Assembly (NCBI GenBank): GCA_964580935.1 | Contig: CAZOLG010000002.1 | Location: forward strand, 259,627-323,626 | DNA from: an uncultured Methanomassiliicoccales archaeon | Lineage (GTDB): Archaea; Thermoplasmatota; Thermoplasmata; Methanomassiliicoccales; CAZOLG01 | Direction: 5' to 3' | Length of the DNA stretch: 64,000 nt | In this document: positions 32,251-46,593 of the stretch, in pieces | Position numbering within the stretch: the stretch's first letter is position 1 | Layout of the letters: each line of letters opens with the position of its first letter | Made by a program: the position numbers and the translations under genes | The notes under the pieces: generated by a model | Databases searched by the model: none | Told to the model about the DNA's origin: nothing | Seen by the model: the letters and a program-made list of their open reading frames with translations, nothing else

Positions 32251-33093
32251 TTACTTAGAAGCGACGGCGATGATCTCTCTGATTAGTCTCCCTGCCAGGG
32301 CGGCGGTATTGCCATTATCGTAAGGCGGGCAGACCTCCACCAAGTCGAAACCTACCAGCCTCTCACCCACCATATCGATTATCTTCTTGACCTCGTAAGG
32401 AGATAGGCCGAAGGGTTCGGGATTGCCCGTGGCAGGAGCGTATGCGGGGTCTATACCATCCATGTCTAGAGTAAGGTATATTCGTTCGCGGTCGATGGAG
32501 TCCAGGGCCTCCCGACATCCAGATAGTACCCCATGCTCCTTGATGGTGAAGGCGTCCACGTTCCGAACCGGGGAGTCGCGTTCTTCTGCCGATACAGACC
32601 TCACACCCACCACCACGATGTTATTCTCCCCCGTATACTCGGAGATCCTCCTGCTTACACAGGCGTGACTCAGTGGATCTCCTAGGTATTCTTCTCTGCT
32701 ATCGAGATGGGCATCGATGGATACCACAGCGATATCCTTGAATGCCTTGACAGCAGGTACTGTGATGCTGTGCTCACCCCCCATCAGTATGGGAAACTTT
32801 CCATCATTTACAATTCTCTCCATCTCAGGTCGAAGCCCGTCCCCCATGTCCTGAGCAGTGGCAAACTCTCCAAGATTTCCACAATCGTGTATACCCAACT
32901 CACACAGATCAACCCCATGTTCAAAAAGATAGGTCTCAAAATTGTACGAAGCTTCCCTGATTCTGTTGGGCGCGAACCTCGCTCCCGAACGGAAGGACGA
33001 GGTACGGTCGAAAGGGCACCCAATAATCACAAAATCTGCATCATCATATGACGAGTGGGCATCGGCAAAGGCGGCCCCGGAGAGAGACATCAT
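32251..33093 (-). CDS. speB: Agmatinase
   Basis: GGEHS, DAHLD, DMDGIDP, DLVEV.P. Adjacent to aIF5A. Confidence 0.93.
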   Translation of the reverse strand: MMSLSGAAFADAHSSYDDADFVIIGCPFDRTSSFRSGARFAPNRIREASYNFETYLFEHGVDLCELGIHDCGNLGEFATAQDMGDGLRPEMERIVNDGKFPILMGGEHSITVPAVKAFKDIAVVSIDAHLDSREEYLGDPLSHACVSRRISEYTGENNIVVVGVRSVSAEERDSPVRNVDAFTIKEHGVLSGCREALDSIDRERIYLTLDMDGIDPAYAPATGNPEPFGLSPYEVKKIIDMVGERLVGFDLVEVCPPYDNGNTAALAGRLIREIIAVASK

Positions 33094-33480
33094 TCATACC
33101 CGCGTTATTTTCTTCCTGCCCATGGCCACCAGGTACATGATCTCTTCACCCGTTTCGAACTGTCCCTCATACCTCTCTGGTATGGGCAAATTGAAAGTGT
33201 CGTAGTCCTCAAGATCCATCAGCTGCACCTCGTCCCCCATAATTGCAAGAACCTGTGCCTTTCTCTTGTCTATCATGGGCACCTTGATCTTGTGCCTCAC
33301 AGGGTACACAACGCTCCTCTTCTGACCGTCGAAAATACCGGTGGCCTGAATCCTCGCTTTGGCCTCACCGTGCTTGCCCGGCTTGGAAGTTGAAATGGAA
33401 TCGATCTTACACGGTTCGTCATCGATCAGGAGGTACCTGTTCTCTCTGAGTTCCCTAACCTCGGATTGCGTCCATGACAT
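33094..33480 (-). CDS. eif5a: Translation factor aIF5A
   Basis: Hypusine-site motif SKPGKHGEAK. Confidence 0.96.
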   Translation of the reverse strand: MSWTQSEVRELRENRYLLIDDEPCKIDSISTSKPGKHGEAKARIQATGIFDGQKRSVVYPVRHKIKVPMIDKRKAQVLAIMGDEVQLMDLEDYDTFNLPIPERYEGQFETGEEIMYLVAMGRKKITRV

Positions 33481-33537
33481 GGATATCAAATGATGGAAAT
33501 AGCCTACTAGTTAAATAAATTGCTTACATCAAGCCCT

Positions 33538-34551
33538 CTAGGAGGGGCGGGGATACTTCTTCTTGATCTCCTGAACCCTCTGTTCAAACTCCTCTTTCAA
33601 TTCTCTGCCCACGAAGTCGCCGTCCCAGTAATCCACCCTGGCTGCTATTGAGGCCTTATTGGCCAGCGTCCTTGCTATCTTACCCCTCTGCCAGGGAGGG
33701 GCCCTATGTACTGATGGGTGCTGGAAGATGATCCCGTGCTTGGGGGGTTTCTTGTTCTTCTTGAGATGCAGGAATAGCGCCTTCTCCGCTCCCAGCAGCT
33801 GCACCGTGCTGGATGGTAGTCTAGCCATCCTCTCCAGACTTCCCGAAAGGGCGATCAATCTGGCTCCGAGGTGGGGGCCCAGCAGAGTGTTCAGGTTAGG
33901 TGCCACTTCTTTCATCCTCCTAGACACATAATCCTCCAGCTCTTCCTTCCTCCCGTACATGTCCAGAACCTGGGAGGCCTGATCCTGTATCAGAGCGATG
34001 TCTTCATCGCTCAGCTCAGAGCCAATGGAGACTGTATCCAGATCCAGTTCACTAGTAATCTTCTCCCTTTCTCCCAGTTCGGCGATGAGGGAGGCGTATC
34101 TCTCATCGTTCACGTGCTCTAACAGCTCAGGGAAATACAGACCATACCACTCCTTCAACCGTTCGTTCATGGTATTGATCATCTCATTGACATCATCCAG
34201 TGCCCTGATTACCTGCACAATGCATTGGTCCGGGCGAATAGACTCCCGGGTCCTGATCTTGCCCAGCTCTACCATTACCTGGTGCATCAACTCCGATGAA
34301 TAGGAAAAATTCTCTCCCTTTATGAACGAGGAATCGAATACCACCGGCTTGCCCAGTTTTGACAGGCGTGAATCGGCAACCTTCATTCCTTTCTCTGCCA
34401 GTTCTTCCTCCTCGGGCAGGACTTCCCCCCTCTGTACCCGCGATAGTTTCTCCGCCATCTTCTGGGGATCCTTCTCAAACAGTGCCTGATCCACTATACG
34501 GTGATCATCACAGACGAAGACGCCAAACCATTTGGTGACCAGTATCATCAT
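33538..34551 (-). CDS. nop5: Box C/D RNP protein Nop5 (NOP56/58)
   Basis: RLKEWYG..FPEL, APNL..L.G..LGARL, STVQLLGAEKALF, PKHGIIF, RGKIAR. Confidence 0.93.
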   Translation of the reverse strand: MMILVTKWFGVFVCDDHRIVDQALFEKDPQKMAEKLSRVQRGEVLPEEEELAEKGMKVADSRLSKLGKPVVFDSSFIKGENFSYSSELMHQVMVELGKIRTRESIRPDQCIVQVIRALDDVNEMINTMNERLKEWYGLYFPELLEHVNDERYASLIAELGEREKITSELDLDTVSIGSELSDEDIALIQDQASQVLDMYGRKEELEDYVSRRMKEVAPNLNTLLGPHLGARLIALSGSLERMARLPSSTVQLLGAEKALFLHLKKNKKPPKHGIIFQHPSVHRAPPWQRGKIARTLANKASIAARVDYWDGDFVGRELKEEFEQRVQEIKKKYPRPS

Positions 34552-34600
34552 ATCCCCATCAAGTTACTGACTATTGCATTTTCCTTTGATTTTTTCGTTT

Positions 34601-35224
34601 TCATTCCAGTTGTCTCAGTGCCTCTATATCGGGATCGGAGAGCTCATTGGGTGTCCCAATGGCCTCTGCTCTAACCTGAACCATGGCCAGGAACTCCATC
34701 TCCTCCAGCCGGTTGTAGGCCTCTTCCAGATCTCTCCCCCAGGCAAAAGCACCGTGATTCTGCAGCAGGCACCCAAATCCCTTGTCACTGGCCCCAGCCA
34801 CAGCGCTTGCCAATTCCTCTGTCCCCGGGGTCTCGTAGGGTAGTAAGGGCACTTCCTTGAGAACCAGCACCCCTTCCGGGATCATGCTGATGCGCAGCTC
34901 CCTGCTCAGTACAGCCAGCGTGGTGCAGAACGGTGGATGCCCGTGAACCACAGCTCCGACTTCCGGCCTGCGTCTGTAAAGTAAGAGATGTAAAGGGGTT
35001 TCTATCGAGGGGCGTCCTCCTCCCCGGACCTCACCTTCCAGAGAGAGCTTGATCAAATCGGGGGGTCCAAGGTCTCCCTTTCTCACACCAGAAGGAGTGA
35101 TCAGCACTGTGCTGTCGCCAACCCTCGCACTGATGTTCCCTCCAGTGGCATAAGTGAGTTGCCGTTCGTACATCAACCTACCGTATCGGACAATCTCGTC
35201 CCTTAGCCTGCTCTCAGAACTCAT
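34601..35224 (-). CDS. Class II aldolase/adducin family (FucA/MtnB-like)
   Basis: GGNISAR, ITPSG, PSIETPLH, VVHGHP, LLQNHG. Start ATG 35224 overlaps the mtnA stop. Confidence 0.88.
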   Translation of the reverse strand: MSSESRLRDEIVRYGRLMYERQLTYATGGNISARVGDSTVLITPSGVRKGDLGPPDLIKLSLEGEVRGGGRPSIETPLHLLLYRRRPEVGAVVHGHPPFCTTLAVLSRELRISMIPEGVLVLKEVPLLPYETPGTEELASAVAGASDKGFGCLLQNHGAFAWGRDLEEAYNRLEEMEFLAMVQVRAEAIGTPNELSDPDIEALRQLE

Positions 35225-36245
35225 CCTTTTCCTCCCTGATGTGATGGATCTTATCCGGGGAAAACAGTCCCTTCTCGGTGATAAACTTAGTGACCAGGTG
35301 ATGAGGGGTGACATCAAAGGCGGGGTTGAAGGCAGAAGAGCCGCCCGGGGCTACTCTCTGGCCTTCTATGCTTGTAACTTCTTCCTCCGCCCTGCCTTCG
35401 ATCGGGATATCATCTCCTGACGATGTGGAGAAGTCAAAGGTGGAGAGGGGCGCGGCCACGTAGAAAGGGATTCTCAGTTCTCTGGCAATGACCGCCTTCT
35501 CGAAGGTGCCGATCTTATTGGCGAAATCTCCATTGGCCACCACCCTATCCGCGCCGGTGATTACCAGGTCCACTTCCCGTTTCATGAAGTGTCCAGAAGC
35601 ACCGTCCACGATGATCGAGTGGGGGATCCCTTCATTGAGCAGTTCCCAGGCGGTCAGTTTCATCCCCTGCATTCTGGGGCGAGTTTCTGAGACGTAAACG
35701 AAGAAATCGGTACCTCGCTCCCAGGCCACCCTCATGGGGGCCAGTGCAGTTCCGAAGTCGACGGCGGCAAGGGCGCCCGCGTTGCAATGGGTCATCACTT
35801 TTGATCCTTCAGGTATAAGCGGCGCTCCATTCTCTCCTATGGCGATGCATCGGGCCACTATCGAATCGGCGTACACACCGGCTACCGCCACAGGGTCCTC
35901 TCCAGAGGAGATGGCAGACATCATATGGTCGACGGCATAGAACAGGTCGTTGGCCGTCGGCCTGGCCGATTTGAGCTCCGAAGCAGCTGCCTCGAGATCT
36001 TCCCCGTTCAGGGCCGCCAGCATCATCCCGTATGCAGCGGCGGCCCCTATAGAGGGGGCGCCCCTGATCGTCATGTCGGTTATGCAGGAGGCCATGGTCC
36101 TGTGGTCTCTGATATCAATAATCTCAAATTCCCCTGGAAGAATCTTCTGATCGATCATCAGGACTTTGTCACCGTCATACCACACCGCCCTCAGATCCTC
36201 TTCTCCCTCGTCGGTCTTGACTCGCAAACTGTCACCATTACTCAA
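35214..36245 (-). CDS. mtnA: S-methyl-5-thioribose-1-phosphate isomerase
   Basis: IRGAPSIG, RPTA, THCNAGALA, ETRP..QG..LTAWEL, GADR, NKIGT, NPAFDVTP. Confidence 0.94.
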   Translation of the reverse strand: MSNGDSLRVKTDEGEEDLRAVWYDGDKVLMIDQKILPGEFEIIDIRDHRTMASCITDMTIRGAPSIGAAAAYGMMLAALNGEDLEAAASELKSARPTANDLFYAVDHMMSAISSGEDPVAVAGVYADSIVARCIAIGENGAPLIPEGSKVMTHCNAGALAAVDFGTALAPMRVAWERGTDFFVYVSETRPRMQGMKLTAWELLNEGIPHSIIVDGASGHFMKREVDLVITGADRVVANGDFANKIGTFEKAVIARELRIPFYVAAPLSTFDFSTSSGDDIPIEGRAEEEVTSIEGQRVAPGGSSAFNPAFDVTPHHLVTKFITEKGLFSPDKIHHIREEKDEF

Positions 36246-42196: not shown

Positions 42197-42940
42197 ATGA
42201 GGGGATCAGCCTTCGATGTCTATTCTACCAGCTCCGGGCTGAAGCAGATCTCGAATTCAGTGAGACAGAAGATTTTAAATGAACTGCAAGAACAGGATCT
42301 CAGTTTGAGTGAGATAGCTGATTTGACCAATAAGGCCCAGTCGACCCTCTCTGTACACCTGGACAAGATGGTAAAGATGGGGCTGGTGTCTTCCAGAGAT
42401 GACCCTTCCGACAATAGAAGGAAGATATTCTACCTGATCTCTGATCCAGTAGGCAGCTCAGTGGTCCCCAGAGATGATTTGAAGGAAGCTATCGGCAATA
42501 CCATCAATGATTCCATTGGAGACTCGTGCACATTCATGAAGGGGATCCTGAGGTCGGTCATACTGGGCATTGAGGCCATCGGGTTCAACATGGATCCTGT
42601 ACTGAAAGATATAGGGAAGCAAATCGGGAAGGAGCTTTCCAAACATATGGAGTCCGATTCCTTAGAGGGGGTGATCGAGAACATACAAGAGTTCTACGAT
42701 AAACACGGACTGGGGGAAGTATGCGTATACTCTTTCCTGCCCCTTACCTTAATCATCAGGGACAACGGCAACTGCTCCGATATCCCTGAGGCGACTAAGA
42801 CCCTATACCTGATTAATGAAGGGGTGCTGGAAACAATTCTGGAGAACAATTCTGAGATGTCTCTCAAGGTCACAGACAGCGAATGTTTTGGCACCGAACT
42901 CAACTGCTGTAAATATATCATAGAACCTGCGGCTCAATAA
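42197..42940 (+). CDS. ArsR-HTH plus V4R-domain transcriptional regulator
   Basis: VRQKIL..L...LSLSEI...KAQSTLSVHL. C-terminal V4R motif EG.L...EC.G....CC.Y.I. Confidence 0.85.
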   Translation: MRGSAFDVYSTSSGLKQISNSVRQKILNELQEQDLSLSEIADLTNKAQSTLSVHLDKMVKMGLVSSRDDPSDNRRKIFYLISDPVGSSVVPRDDLKEAIGNTINDSIGDSCTFMKGILRSVILGIEAIGFNMDPVLKDIGKQIGKELSKHMESDSLEGVIENIQEFYDKHGLGEVCVYSFLPLTLIIRDNGNCSDIPEATKTLYLINEGVLETILENNSEMSLKVTDSECFGTELNCCKYIIEPAAQ

Positions 42941-42984: not shown

Positions 42985-44451
42985 TTATGGCGTGTACTTG
43001 AACGGATGGCGCACAGACTGTTTCTGATACTGGATCTCTTCTTCAGTGGGTCTGTTCTCCAGGGCCTTTCTGATCGCGTATCTGGCCCCCTTGTAGTTGT
43101 TGACCATCACTCTGCGCTTGTTCGCCGCCGCTGGGTGAACGAATACGTTGGCGATGATCACGATATCGTCCAGTATGGCATCGGGCAAGAACCCGTCCTC
43201 AATACTGGCGTCTACCGCCCACTTCAGTCCCTCCACAGCATGGTTGTAGATCAGGTCCTTCTGATTGCTGGTGCGGGGTGTGATGGTAGGCACTAGAAGC
43301 GTCCGTGGCCTGTCGATCACGATACGCATCTTACCGCCATCATCCACCTCGAGAGCGTTTTCTATGGCCTTTTCGACCGGGCCGTCCTTGAGCCCTATTA
43401 GAAGATCGGTGTGTGCCACTTCGTGATGGGGGGGTCCAGCGTATCCCTCACCCACCCTCAGGGAGAAGTTATCGATAACCTCCGGAGTCTGTGGTGTCGC
43501 GGGTACGCTCGTCTCTATCACACGATCAGGGCCCAGAATGTACTTGGTCTTCCGGCTCTCGATCTTTCCCAGGTTCTCCAGCTCAATTCTCAGCTCTTCT
43601 CTGTCCTCGTGCTGGAATGAGTCCCCGGGCATGGTTGGCCTCCTTGCCTTTCCCACGTCCACACCCATCATCCACAGGCCATCCTTGACCGCCTGAACTC
43701 CACCGGTGCGAACCACTATCCTGACCAGCTTTTGCATCTTCTGCTGGAGTTGGCGCGCCTTCTCCAGCTCTCCCTCCTGGACATACCTGTAGACATCCTG
43801 CCAGTAGTCAGGGATCAGGTTGGCGCTGGCCAGTATGGCTCCATCGGCCCCTTCACCAATGGCCGCCATACCCACTTCGTCGTTGCCCACCAGGATGTTC
43901 ACTTTCTCCCTCACCTTCTCGAACAGAGCTGCAGTATAGGGAATATCCCCGCTGGAGTCTTTGACTCCTATCACGTTGTCCAGGTAGGAAAGACCCTCGG
44001 TAGTCCACCATTTCTGATGGACACCAGCGCACTGAGGGATGTTGTAGAGGATCAGAGGGTAACCTAGCTGGTCCAACTTCTCATAATGCTTGTAGATCTC
44101 GTTCCATGATGGCTTGAAATAATACGGGGTGACCACCAGTGCAGCGTCCGCCCCCACGTCCATTGCCTTCTGTGTGAGACTTATGGTGTTCTTGGTGCTG
44201 CTGGCACCGGTCCCAGCAATCACTGGTTTCGTGCCGTCCACGTGATCGACGACCACTTCGATGGCTCTGGTCCTCTCGTCATCATTCATGTACACAAATT
44301 CGCCTGTGGTGCCCGCCACCACAAAACCGTCCACGTCATCCATCAGATGATCGACTAGCGCCCTCAACCTCTCTTCGTCCAGCTTCTCCTCCTTGTCGAA
44401 GGGTGTCACTATGGCCGGAAATATGCCCTTTAACCAGTCTACTCTCGGCAT
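42985..44451 (-). CDS. DapA/NanA-family class I aldolase fused to a formaldehyde-activating enzyme (Fae) domain, copy A
   Basis: GIFPAIVTPF, GTTGE, PYY, YNIP, Schiff-base GVKDS. C-terminal VGEG..G...EVAHTDLLIG, VFVHP.A, NY, RHPF. Confidence 0.88.
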   Translation of the reverse strand: MPRVDWLKGIFPAIVTPFDKEEKLDEERLRALVDHLMDDVDGFVVAGTTGEFVYMNDDERTRAIEVVVDHVDGTKPVIAGTGASSTKNTISLTQKAMDVGADAALVVTPYYFKPSWNEIYKHYEKLDQLGYPLILYNIPQCAGVHQKWWTTEGLSYLDNVIGVKDSSGDIPYTAALFEKVREKVNILVGNDEVGMAAIGEGADGAILASANLIPDYWQDVYRYVQEGELEKARQLQQKMQKLVRIVVRTGGVQAVKDGLWMMGVDVGKARRPTMPGDSFQHEDREELRIELENLGKIESRKTKYILGPDRVIETSVPATPQTPEVIDNFSLRVGEGYAGPPHHEVAHTDLLIGLKDGPVEKAIENALEVDDGGKMRIVIDRPRTLLVPTITPRTSNQKDLIYNHAVEGLKWAVDASIEDGFLPDAILDDIVIIANVFVHPAAANKRRVMVNNYKGARYAIRKALENRPTEEEIQYQKQSVRHPFKYTP

Positions 44452-44452
44452 T

Positions 44453-45880
44453 TCAGTTCACCTCCTTTGAGAAAGCCATGTCTATCGCCTCGGTGGTCGC
44501 TTCGTAGAAGTTATGATAAAGTATAGTTCTATCCAGTGCATCGGGATGAACGAATGCCTTTGTCAACATCACGTGAGTGCTCCTGAGATCGCTCGGTATG
44601 ATTCCCTGTTCCACCTTATCACTGATCGCCTTGGCTATCCCCGCCTGGGCCGGTCCGTACATGATGTTTGCCTGCCTCAAGCTCTTCAGCTGTACGGTAG
44701 GTACGATCAACGTTGATGGTTTGGCTGACAGGTTCGGTTCGAGAACACTGGGAAGGGCTTCATACCCTCTTCTCAGGTAAGTGATCTGACATGCGAATGC
44801 TTCTCCCACCGGGCTATCGTTAGGCCCGGCTACCAGGTCCACGGTGACCCTGTTCAGGTCAGTACCTGCGGAAGAACTCCCGGCCATCACCTCGTTAGAA
44901 TTCACATGCTGTGGGGAGATGCCGACGTCTTCGAATTTTTCCTCCAGAGGAACTTCCGGTAACGCGGCGGTGGGTTCTGAAGGCGGCCTCTTACCGATCT
45001 TTTCCAGCTCCAGTCTGATCTCTTCCCTGTCCTCATGAAGTATCACTCCGCCTTCCCTCATGGGGCTGCGAGTCCTGCCCATGCTCATACCCATGTACCT
45101 GAGGGCGGCTTTGACGGGGACCATCCCCCCATACCTGGTGAATATCCTGGACAGCTTCTGTACCTTCCTCTGTTCTTCTCTTGCCTCCTCGAGGTCGCCC
45201 GACATGACAGCCTGGAAGACTTTCTGCCAGATATCGGGATAAACCTGCCCGCTGGCCAGGATCATGCCGCTGCATCCTCCGGCCAGAGCGGGGAGGACCA
45301 CCTCGTCGTGACCCACCAAGACGTCAATCCTTCCTTCTACCTTTTCCAAGATCTCCATGGTGTAGGTCAGATCTCCAGAAGAGTCCTTCAGACCGATAAC
45401 GTTGTCCAATTCAGACAGATCCTCAACCACCCTCCTGGGGAGATAGTCTCCCACCGTCTGAGGTATGTTGTAGAGAATAATGGGAAGATCTGTTGACTGG
45501 GAAAGTTGCCAGAAGTGTTCATAAATCCCTTTATCAGAAGGGTGGAGGAAGTACGGGGTGACCACTAGACAGGCATCTGCACCCGCGTCCTCGGCGTACT
45601 GTGTCAGTTCGATCACCTGCTGCGTGCCCGGTGCCCCAGTACCGGCAATCACCGGCTTCTCTCCATTCACTTCATCTATGCAAACATCGAAGAGACTTTT
45701 CCTCTCATCCACGGTCAGATAGTCAAACTCCCCCGTTGTTCCACAGGGGACAAATCCGTCTACATGATCGAAAATATGCTGGATGAGGCTTCGGAATGCC
45801 TCTTCATCCAACTCCTTTTCCTTGTCAAATGGAGTCACTAAAGCGGGGAATACCCCTTCTAATTTGAGTTCTCTGGTCAT
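44453..45880 (-). CDS. DapA/NanA-family class I aldolase fused to a Fae domain, copy B
   Basis: GVFPALVTPF, GTTGE, YNIP, GLKDS. C-terminal DLVAGP..SPVGEAF, PNL..KP.TL, YGPAQAG, GIIP, FVHP.A, YEAT. Confidence 0.88.
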   Translation of the reverse strand: MTRELKLEGVFPALVTPFDKEKELDEEAFRSLIQHIFDHVDGFVPCGTTGEFDYLTVDERKSLFDVCIDEVNGEKPVIAGTGAPGTQQVIELTQYAEDAGADACLVVTPYFLHPSDKGIYEHFWQLSQSTDLPIILYNIPQTVGDYLPRRVVEDLSELDNVIGLKDSSGDLTYTMEILEKVEGRIDVLVGHDEVVLPALAGGCSGMILASGQVYPDIWQKVFQAVMSGDLEEAREEQRKVQKLSRIFTRYGGMVPVKAALRYMGMSMGRTRSPMREGGVILHEDREEIRLELEKIGKRPPSEPTAALPEVPLEEKFEDVGISPQHVNSNEVMAGSSSAGTDLNRVTVDLVAGPNDSPVGEAFACQITYLRRGYEALPSVLEPNLSAKPSTLIVPTVQLKSLRQANIMYGPAQAGIAKAISDKVEQGIIPSDLRSTHVMLTKAFVHPDALDRTILYHNFYEATTEAIDMAFSKEVN

Positions 45881-46082
45881 TGACCTCCTCTCAGAAGCTC
45901 AATATGATAGCCCCTATATTAATTTCCCCGCACCACCTTTCGTCTGTCCGGGAAAATATTGTGATAGTACCTTGGGGGTCCGGATGGCCTTTCCAATGCC
46001 GCTGCTTGTTCACAACCTGAAGAATTATGGCACCACGCCTACGAGAACGATTGAGAGATAATAATGATTTCTAAAATCTGAG

Positions 46083-46180
46083 TGGGCTCACCCGGATTTG
46101 AACCGGGGACCTCCGCCACTTCGACCCTCCCGGAATGGAGAGATGTCAAGGCGACGTCATAACCACTAGACTATGAGCCC
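46083..46180 (-). tRNA. tRNA-Val(GAC) with a 25-nt intron at 37/38 (46119-46143)
   Basis: Acceptor GGGCTCA/TGAGCCC, anticodon arm TCGCC-TTGACA^T-GGCGG, T-loop TTCAAAT. The intron forms a bulge-helix-bulge. Confidence 0.95.
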
Positions 46181-46353
46181 TTGCGGAGGCAGAATAAGGC
46201 TTTCCCCTCTAAATCTTTTTCGATGTCCTACTTTCTGGCCTGCTTTAAGAAACGGTGTTCGCACGCCCTCAGAAATGATAGGGGTGGATCAACATATTCT
46301 ATGGACCCACAAGGTATTAATTGGCAGTATATTATCAGTACATAGGGATTTGA

Positions 46354-46593
46354 ATGCAGGATATTCTATTGTTCACCAAACCTGATTGCCAGAAATGTGA
46401 TTATGTTAAGGAGAGGTTACCAGAGGGGGTGGATATAGAATTGATTGACGCCACCACCGTTGACGGGATGGCAGAGGCCGCTTTTTACGAGGTGCTGGAG
46501 GAACCCACTCCTATACTAGTGTATAATGGAGACGTAGTAACCGGCGCATTGAAGATCATCAACAGACTGGAGTCTCTGAACGAAGAACAGTAA
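46354..46593 (+). CDS. Glutaredoxin/thioredoxin-like small protein
   Basis: LFTKPDCQKCD, cis-Pro region PTPIL. Confidence 0.8.
   Translation: MQDILLFTKPDCQKCDYVKERLPEGVDIELIDATTVDGMAEAAFYEVLEEPTPILVYNGDVVTGALKIINRLESLNEEQ

Follow-up and report, generated by a model that had tools for sequence, protein, structure and literature searches.

What is the function of two adjacent archaeal genes that each join a DapA-type aldolase to a domain of the formaldehyde-activating enzyme (Fae), and are they the lysine-pathway enzymes that the names of their homologues indicate? The pair lies in a 64,000-nucleotide (nt) stretch of DNA, here called the window, from an uncultured Methanomassiliicoccales archaeon (assembly GCA_964580935.1). 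In the window's list of open reading frames (ORFs), gene A is upstream and gene B downstream, both on the minus strand, with products of 475 and 488 amino acids (aa; Table 1). We found that the pair is real, conserved and misannotated, and that its architecture is a variant of the Fae–aldolase theme, with a predicted split active site and a host without the canonical cofactor.

The aldolase domains and the DapA name

A preliminary description, made from the letters of the window, had reported two paralogues of these lengths lying 1 nt apart, a Shine-Dalgarno sequence inside the end of the upstream gene, intact class I aldolase motifs in both proteins (GTTGE, the YNIP tyrosine and the KDS lysine) and the loss from both of the arginine that follows YNxP. 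The ORFs, the sequence and our alignments bear out each of these observations. The stop codon of A (TGA, 44455–44453) and the start codon of B (ATG, 44451–44449) are separated by the single nucleotide 44452, and AAGGAGGTGA lies within the end of A, a geometry that fits translational coupling. Judging from their sequence and position, TTAATATA and GAGGAGGT are likely the expression signals of the pair.

Both proteins match the Pfam family DHDPS (PF00701, cut-off 22.1) over their N-terminal domains, with E-values of 4.7e-72 for A (242.6 bits) and 4.3e-73 for B (246.0 bits). We aligned them with DapA and NanA of Escherichia coli and with four stand-alone DHDPS paralogues from the same genome. GTTGEF, YNIP and KDSS are present in both, the second as YNIPQTV in A and YNIPQCA in B. 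The DapA residues T44/T45, Y133 and K161 are kept in both proteins, and R138, which binds aspartate semialdehyde in DapA, is replaced by Thr in A and by Cys in B. Both carry the NanA-like GxDE instead of the GDD of DapA, and both have an additional linker and Fae domain of about 190 residues.

The same residues were then counted across 88 family members (51 A-type, 34 B-type and 3 of a single-gene type, C). The Schiff-base lysine is present in 51/51 A, 34/34 B and 3/3 C sequences and the Tyr133 equivalent in all 88; the Thr44 equivalent is found in 51/51 A and 32/34 B, with Ser in two B sequences and one C sequence. Arginine at the fifth position after the tyrosine, equivalent to Arg138, occurs in 0/88. 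After YNIPQ the two types differ, with Arg149 in 46/51 A versus Trp148 in 34/34 and Trp149 in 32/34 B sequences. By these residues, both aldolase sites look competent.

NCBIfam ranks dapA first for both proteins. Against its dapA model (TIGR00674, cut-off 206.15), A scores 223.9 bits and B 204.5 bits, compared to 361.7 bits for a separate dapA in the same genome (contig 2, 355159–356010), and the closest sequence matches in the PDB are all DapA, with E-values from 2.7e-50. The separate dapA has the SRTG motif and is followed by dapB (253.9 bits) and aspartate kinase, in a cluster about 50 kb from the pair on the same contig. Therefore, lysine synthesis is already provided for. No dap genes were found next to the pair among the window's ORFs, in related loci or in a Pfam scan of neighbouring genes. 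The absence of the Arg138 equivalent and the separate dapA–dapB–aspartate kinase cluster thus sustain the earlier proposal that A and B are not lysine-pathway enzymes. Three further stand-alone DHDPS paralogues are encoded by the genome (C3:158024–158890, C1:566495–567349 and C4:271061–271951), and the alignment shows no SRTG arginine motif in them.

The DHDPS–Fae architecture is widespread and routinely auto-named DapA. At E <= 1e-100, the single-gene form matches at least 2134 clusters at 90% identity. Among the best 120 homologues in each of two listings, all source names are DapA, with the exception of two entries named 'hypothetical protein' (P0051 and P0341). This naming arises because dapA ranks first in NCBIfam, with A just above and B just below the equivalog cut-off. 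The DapA names of these homologues are almost certainly wrong, and they inflate lysine-pathway calls in metabolic reconstructions. Full-text literature searches, including ones aimed at this architecture and at Fae in these lineages, returned no paper describing a DHDPS–Fae protein, in agreement with the earlier remark that no characterized enzyme of this architecture was known.

We surveyed 401 Thermoplasmatota genomes (phylum sample) and 71 genomes of the order (order sample). Fae matches occur in 10/401 genomes, nine of which, including the window's own, have two matches about 1.4–1.6 kb apart on one strand. In eight of these nine, both matches lie in frames of 476–562 aa; in the other (G010), letters X in the locus cut the second frame to 215 aa. 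The tenth genome has a canonical 181-aa Fae beside an Mtd-like gene. Within the order sample, the pair is present in 15/71 genomes, comprising 10/10 of family f5, 4/4 of f6 and the window's own genome, and was not found in families f2 (0/18), f3 (0/19) and f4 (0/18). A metagenome scan yielded 36 further loci with full-length matches, for a total of 45 with the genome loci, a set that includes loci from the same or near-identical genomes. Both types are present at 31/45 loci, always as A then B on the same strand (31/31). The gap between them is within ±20 nt at 19 of these loci and 21–350 nt at seven; an unrelated gene (TruD, an M23 peptidase or a transposase) is inserted at three, and start calls are uncertain at two.

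In the phylogenetic tree, the B sequences make up one clade (support 98), and the loci group alike within the subtrees of A and of B; the tree is unrooted, as long DHDPS-only outgroup branches join inside the ingroup, and we claim no order of A, B and C. In part of the Thermoplasmatota, A followed by B is an ancient and conserved module, which by source labels also occurs in Chloroflexi. The single-gene form C, found at four loci (L059, L060, L061 and L069), is roughly equidistant from A and B. Among the best 120 listed, relatives of C are 84–98% identical to one another, and their named sources are mostly Asgard archaea, namely Promethearchaeota (Lokiarchaeota), Hodarchaeota and Thorarchaeota. 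Across all forms, source labels place homologues in Methanomassiliicoccales, other Thermoplasmata, Chloroflexi and Asgard archaea.

Complementary loss in the two Fae domains

The C-terminal domains belong to the Fae family, as the preliminary description had proposed. Pfam Fae (PF08714, cut-off 27) matches A at 1.8e-37 (129.2 bits, profile positions 7–140 of 159) and B at 8.2e-29 (101.1 bits, positions 1–158 of 159), and NCBIfam Fae (TIGR03126, cut-off 118.05) scores 132.8 bits for A and 113.6 bits for B. Both are homologous over 141–161 residues to the stand-alone Fae of Methylobacterium extorquens (PDB 1Y5Y/1Y60; 7.6e-23 for A, 1.5e-17 for B), a homopentamer that uses tetrahydromethanopterin (H4MPT). 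On these scores, the DHDPS and Fae matches of A and B are strong homology and not chance. Unlike the stand-alone enzyme, neither domain holds the full conserved set of residues: A lacks the conserved His and is C-terminally truncated, and B lacks the EPNL loop.

As a reference, we used 117 canonical stand-alone Fae sequences, a narrow set whose members all share at least 73% identity with a single archaeal Fae, and in which 78 columns are at least 97% conserved. Of these 78, A keeps 24 and B keeps 29; 43 are kept by at least one of the two proteins, only 10 by both, and 38 by the single-gene C. The residues kept in B only are Glu, Ala-His, Phe132, Asn147 and the C-terminal His-Pro-Phe, while those kept in A only are Leu-Glu-Pro-Asn, Gly98, Gln101 and Asp110. 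Gone from A are the Glu, the His and the final ~20 residues; B lacks GPxQ and has a deletion of five residues in the EPNL loop.

The group consensus sequences have the same pattern. Those of both B and C retain N-terminal GE..G..E.AH.DL.G..GP as well as C-terminal NVFVHP...RHPF.Y.P, and those of both A and C retain the central EAL..LEPNL..P.TL...LRQA..YGP.Q.A.AKA. The Fae Glu, His, Asp and C-terminal His are each present in 34/34 B sequences, and the His that aligns with EVAHIDL of M. extorquens Fae is found in 34/34 B, in 3/3 C and in a fraction of 0.12 of A. Conversely, 51/51 A sequences have the Glu and Pro of EPN, the Gly and the Gln, and a fraction of 0.88 has the EPN Asn. The full motif set (GE..AH.DL, LEPNL, GPAQ and C-terminal HPF) occurs in one chain only in C, and in neither A nor B. 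As read from these alignments, the two Fae domains are decayed in complementary ways.

We predicted the complex of the two Fae regions (A 325–475 and B 320–488, with a 20-row alignment each). The model has an ipSAE of 0.80 (0.79, 0.82 and 0.80 in separate runs), compared to 0.01 for the best control; the 0.80 mark is reached by 58/80 solved complexes and by 2/110 mismatched pairs. The runs share at least 80% of contacts, and the partner's predicted local distance difference test score (pLDDT) is at least 83. The predicted interface comprises residues 379–387 (the LEPNL loop), 409 and 412–413 (GPxQ) of A, and residues 333–337 (GE), 347 (His), 349 (Asp), 357–359 and 468–482 (C-terminal, RHP) of B. 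These predicted interface residues are the motifs that each chain has retained.

The active site of Fae lies between neighbouring subunits of the pentamer, and the model suggests one composite Fae site per A:B heterodimer. The most economical reading of the model, the tandem order and the coupling geometry is that A and B form an obligate heteromer; they look like subunits of one heteromer rather than redundant paralogues. If so, the single-gene C form would be the undivided state, and its comparison with the A/B tandem, with complementary loss at predicted interface sites, would offer a clean natural case of the passage from a homomer to an obligate heteromer.

Cofactors of the host and candidate reactions

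The window's genome (1.87 Mb, 99.86% complete) encodes McrA, and its closest named relatives are Methanomassiliicoccales. It yielded neither Mch nor beta-RFAP synthase, two markers of H4MPT, while control genomes gave the expected matches, and a genome search found no Fae domains besides those of A and B. Therefore, the Fae domains of A and B are not working with H4MPT, which cannot be their one-carbon (C1) partner in this organism. Among five other pair-bearing genomes, beta-RFAP synthase exceeded the cut-off in 0/5, with one sub-threshold match of 21 bits. The window's genome does have FolD and SHMT, and SHMT is found in 5/5 of the other pair-bearing genomes. Passages in two papers likewise describe a C1 pathway on tetrahydrofolate (THF) in Methanomassiliicoccales and no known role for H4MPT (PMC6147122, PMC10804542). 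The preliminary description had coupled the aldolases to a pterin C1 carrier; for H4MPT this part does not hold here, and the folate enzymes FolD and SHMT are what the genome offers. That a Fae domain is conserved where H4MPT is missing implies that either its cofactor specificity or the use of its fold is new.

We propose, tentatively and with slightly less than even confidence, that A and B make up a heteromeric 2-oxoacid aldolase coupled to formaldehyde or to C1-folate. The two proteins would be subunits of one hetero-oligomeric enzyme, each contributing an intact 2-oxoacid aldolase barrel of class I, with its Schiff-base lysine, that derives from DapA. Because the aspartate-semialdehyde-binding arginine is lost, the aldehyde partner would be something else. 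The Fae domains would pair head-to-tail, the B face (Glu335, His347, Asp349 and RHPF) meeting the A face (LEPNL loop and GPxQ), which would leave one complete Fae-type site per A:B pair, the opposite faces having decayed. By analogy with Fae-Hps, the Fae module would most likely handle formaldehyde beside an aldolase that makes or consumes it. As H4MPT is absent and folate C1 enzymes are present, the C1 partner is probably THF or free formaldehyde.

The C1 step would then be methylene-THF <-> THF + HCHO, or would use free formaldehyde directly, and the carbon–carbon step would be 2-oxoacid + HCHO <-> 4-hydroxy-2-oxoacid. The simplest case, pyruvate <-> 4-hydroxy-2-oxobutanoate, had been the example in the preliminary description, and we hold it with less confidence than the general reading. 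We infer the involvement of formaldehyde, the identities of the 2-oxoacid and the pterin and the direction of the reaction, as well as the heteromer, for which the model is the source. A more specific version, which we consider doubtful, is a C1-pterin:2-oxoacid hydroxymethyltransferase built from the class I aldolase and the split Fae site. It would transfer the methylene of methylene-THF (or of the H4MPT form in Asgard C proteins) to pyruvate, giving 4-hydroxy-2-oxobutanoate, or would yield ketopantoate with 3-methyl-2-oxobutanoate as donor. If true, it would provide a homoserine-type route of C1 assimilation, which to date is known only from synthetic design, and the first Fae-family site working without H4MPT.

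A close known arrangement is the Fae-Hps protein of methanogenic archaea, in which Fae is also fused to an aldolase in one polypeptide and a formaldehyde handler also sits beside a carbon–carbon lyase. Its NCBIfam model (NF009833) matches the Fae regions of A (7e-32) and B (2e-23). Unlike in Fae-Hps, the partner in A and B is a class I DHDPS-type barrel, and the genome's Hps is a separate gene; Fae is C-terminal in A and B, rather than N-terminal (profile positions 2–161 of NF009833); and there are two diverged subunits with a predicted composite Fae site, in a host without H4MPT markers. PanB, and promiscuous aldolases of pyruvate and formaldehyde such as RhmA, catalyse the proposed chemistry, joining a 2-oxoacid and a C1 unit into a 4-hydroxy-2-oxoacid, but these class II enzymes depend on a metal, come from unrelated families and have no Fae module, and no homology was found or is claimed. 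A review (PMC8879981) presents the formation of 4-hydroxy-2-oxobutanoate from pyruvate and formaldehyde by RhmA as a promiscuous activity employed in a synthetic cycle, with a product that is non-native in E. coli. A literature search on YagE and 4-hydroxy-2-oxobutanoate found no paper. If the link to formaldehyde is true, the pair would natively catalyse a reaction for which metabolic engineers now turn to promiscuous aldolases.

The genome contains Hps (220.5 bits) and Phi (165.5 bits), and by this gene content an internal source of formaldehyde exists. Apart from the pair, the genome's Hps is fused to an RraA-like domain ('Aldolase/RraA'; G000 contig 3, 93395–94012 region; L121, 835–2130, minus strand) in a protein of 431 aa, with OMPdecase at residues 5–204 and PF03737 at 238–385. 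Full-length homologues occur in genomes G314 (72% identity) and G010 (56%), and in most of the 66 Hps-positive genomes of the order sample Hps lies in frames of about 432–461 aa. Here, as a second case, a formaldehyde-releasing enzyme is joined to a domain of the pyruvate-aldolase type; a literature search on RraA and hexulose found no relevant paper.

Several observations weigh against a formaldehyde-coupled heteromer. The classical proton relay of DapA is incompletely kept, as the equivalent of Tyr107, which in DapA reaches across the tight dimer, is Phe in 36/51 A and 12/34 B sequences (Tyr in 15/51 A, 22/34 B and 3/3 C; the window's A has Phe and its B has Tyr). At locus L047, A occurs without B in 3.9 kb downstream, and at L066 and L067 B occurs without A upstream. 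A homopentamer of Fae has been solved (1Y5Y), and the model's pass may echo likeness to it and is no proof of binding between A and B; the residues conserved at the interface could also serve assembly only, and not catalysis. The characterized Fae is an H4MPT enzyme, so that a role with folate or without a cofactor would be a departure from it, and to our knowledge Fae does not act with THF. The neighbourhoods of the pair reveal no known-pathway theme: among 89 neighbours with 112 Pfam families, none recurs more than three times. The assignments to Chloroflexi and Asgard archaea derive solely from source labels. Finally, Hps is present in 66/71 genomes of the order, including the pair-free families f2 (18/18), f3 (17/19) and f4 (18/18), and therefore the pair is not the general sink for Hps-derived formaldehyde. 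By the same distribution, the pair is not specifically tied to formaldehyde from the ribulose monophosphate pathway.

In an alternative reading, the aldolases would use an aldehyde other than formaldehyde, and the Fae module would be a ligand-binding, regulatory or assembly domain, such as a pterin or small-aldehyde sensor or a heterodimerization handle. The pockets of A and B differ after YNIPQ, the NanA-like GxDE in both hints at aldehydes that are larger and hydroxylated or acidic, the host yielded no H4MPT markers, and conservation of an interface by itself would also produce complementary decay. We nevertheless regard this explanation as unlikely: the Fae residues that are kept are the most conserved polar ones of the family, beyond the usual needs of assembly, and the only other known fusion partner of Fae, Hps (NF009833), is a formaldehyde aldolase. 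Far less probable is that A and B are true isozymes of DapA, making them 4-hydroxy-tetrahydrodipicolinate synthases that have gained one more domain at the C-terminus. The PDB matches, the names of the listed homologues and the score of A, over the equivalog cut-off, all point that way, but B falls under the same cut-off, the Arg138 equivalent is missing throughout the family, a better dapA resides in a lysine-pathway cluster elsewhere, and an isozyme gives no reason for a conserved two-gene module that bears Fae domains.

An analogue of PanB, in which the Fae site opens methylene-pterin and the aldolase adds the C1 unit to 3-methyl-2-oxobutanoate to form ketopantoate for coenzyme A (CoA), is improbable in our estimation, although its chemistry is the dimethyl analogue of pyruvate + HCHO. 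PanB was found in 0/5 pair-bearing genomes and in 0/9 of those in the phylum sample, compared to 108/401 overall, and archaeal phosphopantothenate synthetase (PPS), which needs pantoate, is present in 5/5 pair-bearing genomes. However, PPS is present in 71/71 genomes of the order and the pair in only 15/71, while PanB was also not found in families f2–f6 in the phylum sample (0/62). Therefore, most relatives lack both PanB and the pair, and the test is non-discriminating. Among the 89 neighbours scanned, genes for pantothenate or CoA are not recurrent, and DHDPS-family enzymes are typically specific for pyruvate, which also counts against an analogue of PanB. The formaldehyde- or C1-folate-coupled aldolase is the reading that we retain.

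Features of the locus and its neighbours

Table 1. Positions of the pair, its domains and signals in the window, and proteins encoded upstream of the fusion genes at related loci
Feature	Position (nt)	Strand	Description	Evidence or loci
Gene A	44453..45880	-	DHDPS-family aldolase + truncated Fae domain, 475 aa; upstream putative subunit	ORF, Pfam, NCBIfam
Gene B	42985..44451	-	DHDPS-family aldolase + full-length Fae domain, 488 aa; downstream putative subunit	ORF, Pfam, NCBIfam
A aldolase domain, residues 7-276	45053..45862	-	GTTGEF, Tyr137 (YNIP), Schiff-base Lys165 (KDSS), no Arg at Tyr+5	
A Fae domain, residues 339-472	44465..44866	-	LEPNL loop and GPxQ helix kept; GE/AH motif and C-terminal ~20 residues lost	
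Shine-Dalgarno-like AAGGAGGTGA for B	44458..44467	-	Within 3' end of A, followed by A stop, 1 nt and B ATG	Sequence
B aldolase domain, residues 7-278	43618..44433	-	GTTGEF, Tyr136, Lys164, Trp148-Trp149 after YNIPQ, no Arg at Tyr+5	
B Fae domain, residues 333-484	43000..43455	-	Glu335, His347, Asp349 and C-terminal RHPF kept; 5-residue deletion in EPNL loop; GPxQ lost	
Putative expression signals of the pair	45883..45922	-	Archaeal TATA-like TTAATATA at 45915-45922; GAGGAGGT at 45883-45890, just 5' of A ATG	Sequence
Cluster 1 upstream protein			313-340 aa	L029, L036, L038, L042, L043, L049, L051, L060
Cluster 2 upstream protein			422-484 aa	L045, L046, L055, L059, L061
Cluster 8 upstream protein			415 aa	L037, L039, L041

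The only recurrent neighbours of the fusion genes are proteins without a known family, encoded directly upstream and in the same direction at 13 of the 33 loci for which 1 kb or more of upstream sequence is available. They fall into three clusters (1, 2 and 8) that matched no Pfam or NCBIfam family and have no homologue in the window's own genome. By hhalign, clusters 2 and 8 are related (90.9%), and a relationship between clusters 1 and 2 is possible (27%). An atlas search linked cluster 1 to U32-peptidase-like clusters, a label carried by only 17–23% of their members, and gave nothing usable for cluster 2, whose structure model has a pLDDT of 45.7. The model of cluster 1 (pLDDT 80) is a TIM barrel with generic matches only (template modelling scores of 0.38–0.51). 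These proteins may be a third component in some lineages.

On the other side of the pair, a gene for a 247-aa protein (42197–42940, plus strand) converges on the 3' end of B. Its homologue at locus L030 has an ArsR-type helix-turn-helix (HTH) and a weak, sub-threshold V4R match (22.3 bits, cut-off 31). The two genes are adjacent at four Methanomassiliicoccales loci (the window, L030, L031 and L032; L031 and L011 both represent one stretch of genome G389), and from this synteny among close relatives only, the gene is a possible regulator.

Upstream of A, an Rfam tRNA match (46083–46180, minus strand; 57.9 bits, E-value 5e-11) lies between the gene and a short ORF at about 46350–46590 (minus strand) that is glutaredoxin-like as judged by eye. 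ARAGORN made no call there; the match spans 98 nt compared to 71 model positions, a length that an intron would fit. Further away, a minus-strand block at 32251–36245 comprises IF-2B-family (MtnA-like) and class II aldolase genes with Nop56, aIF5A and an arginase-family gene, the family names being taken from the homologues at L030. The IF-2B/class II aldolase block directly adjoins the pair in the relatives L030 and L032; in the window, about 6 kb lie between, with genes that we named from their translations as thioredoxin-reductase-like, isochorismatase-like, radical-SAM-like, HTH and methyltransferase.

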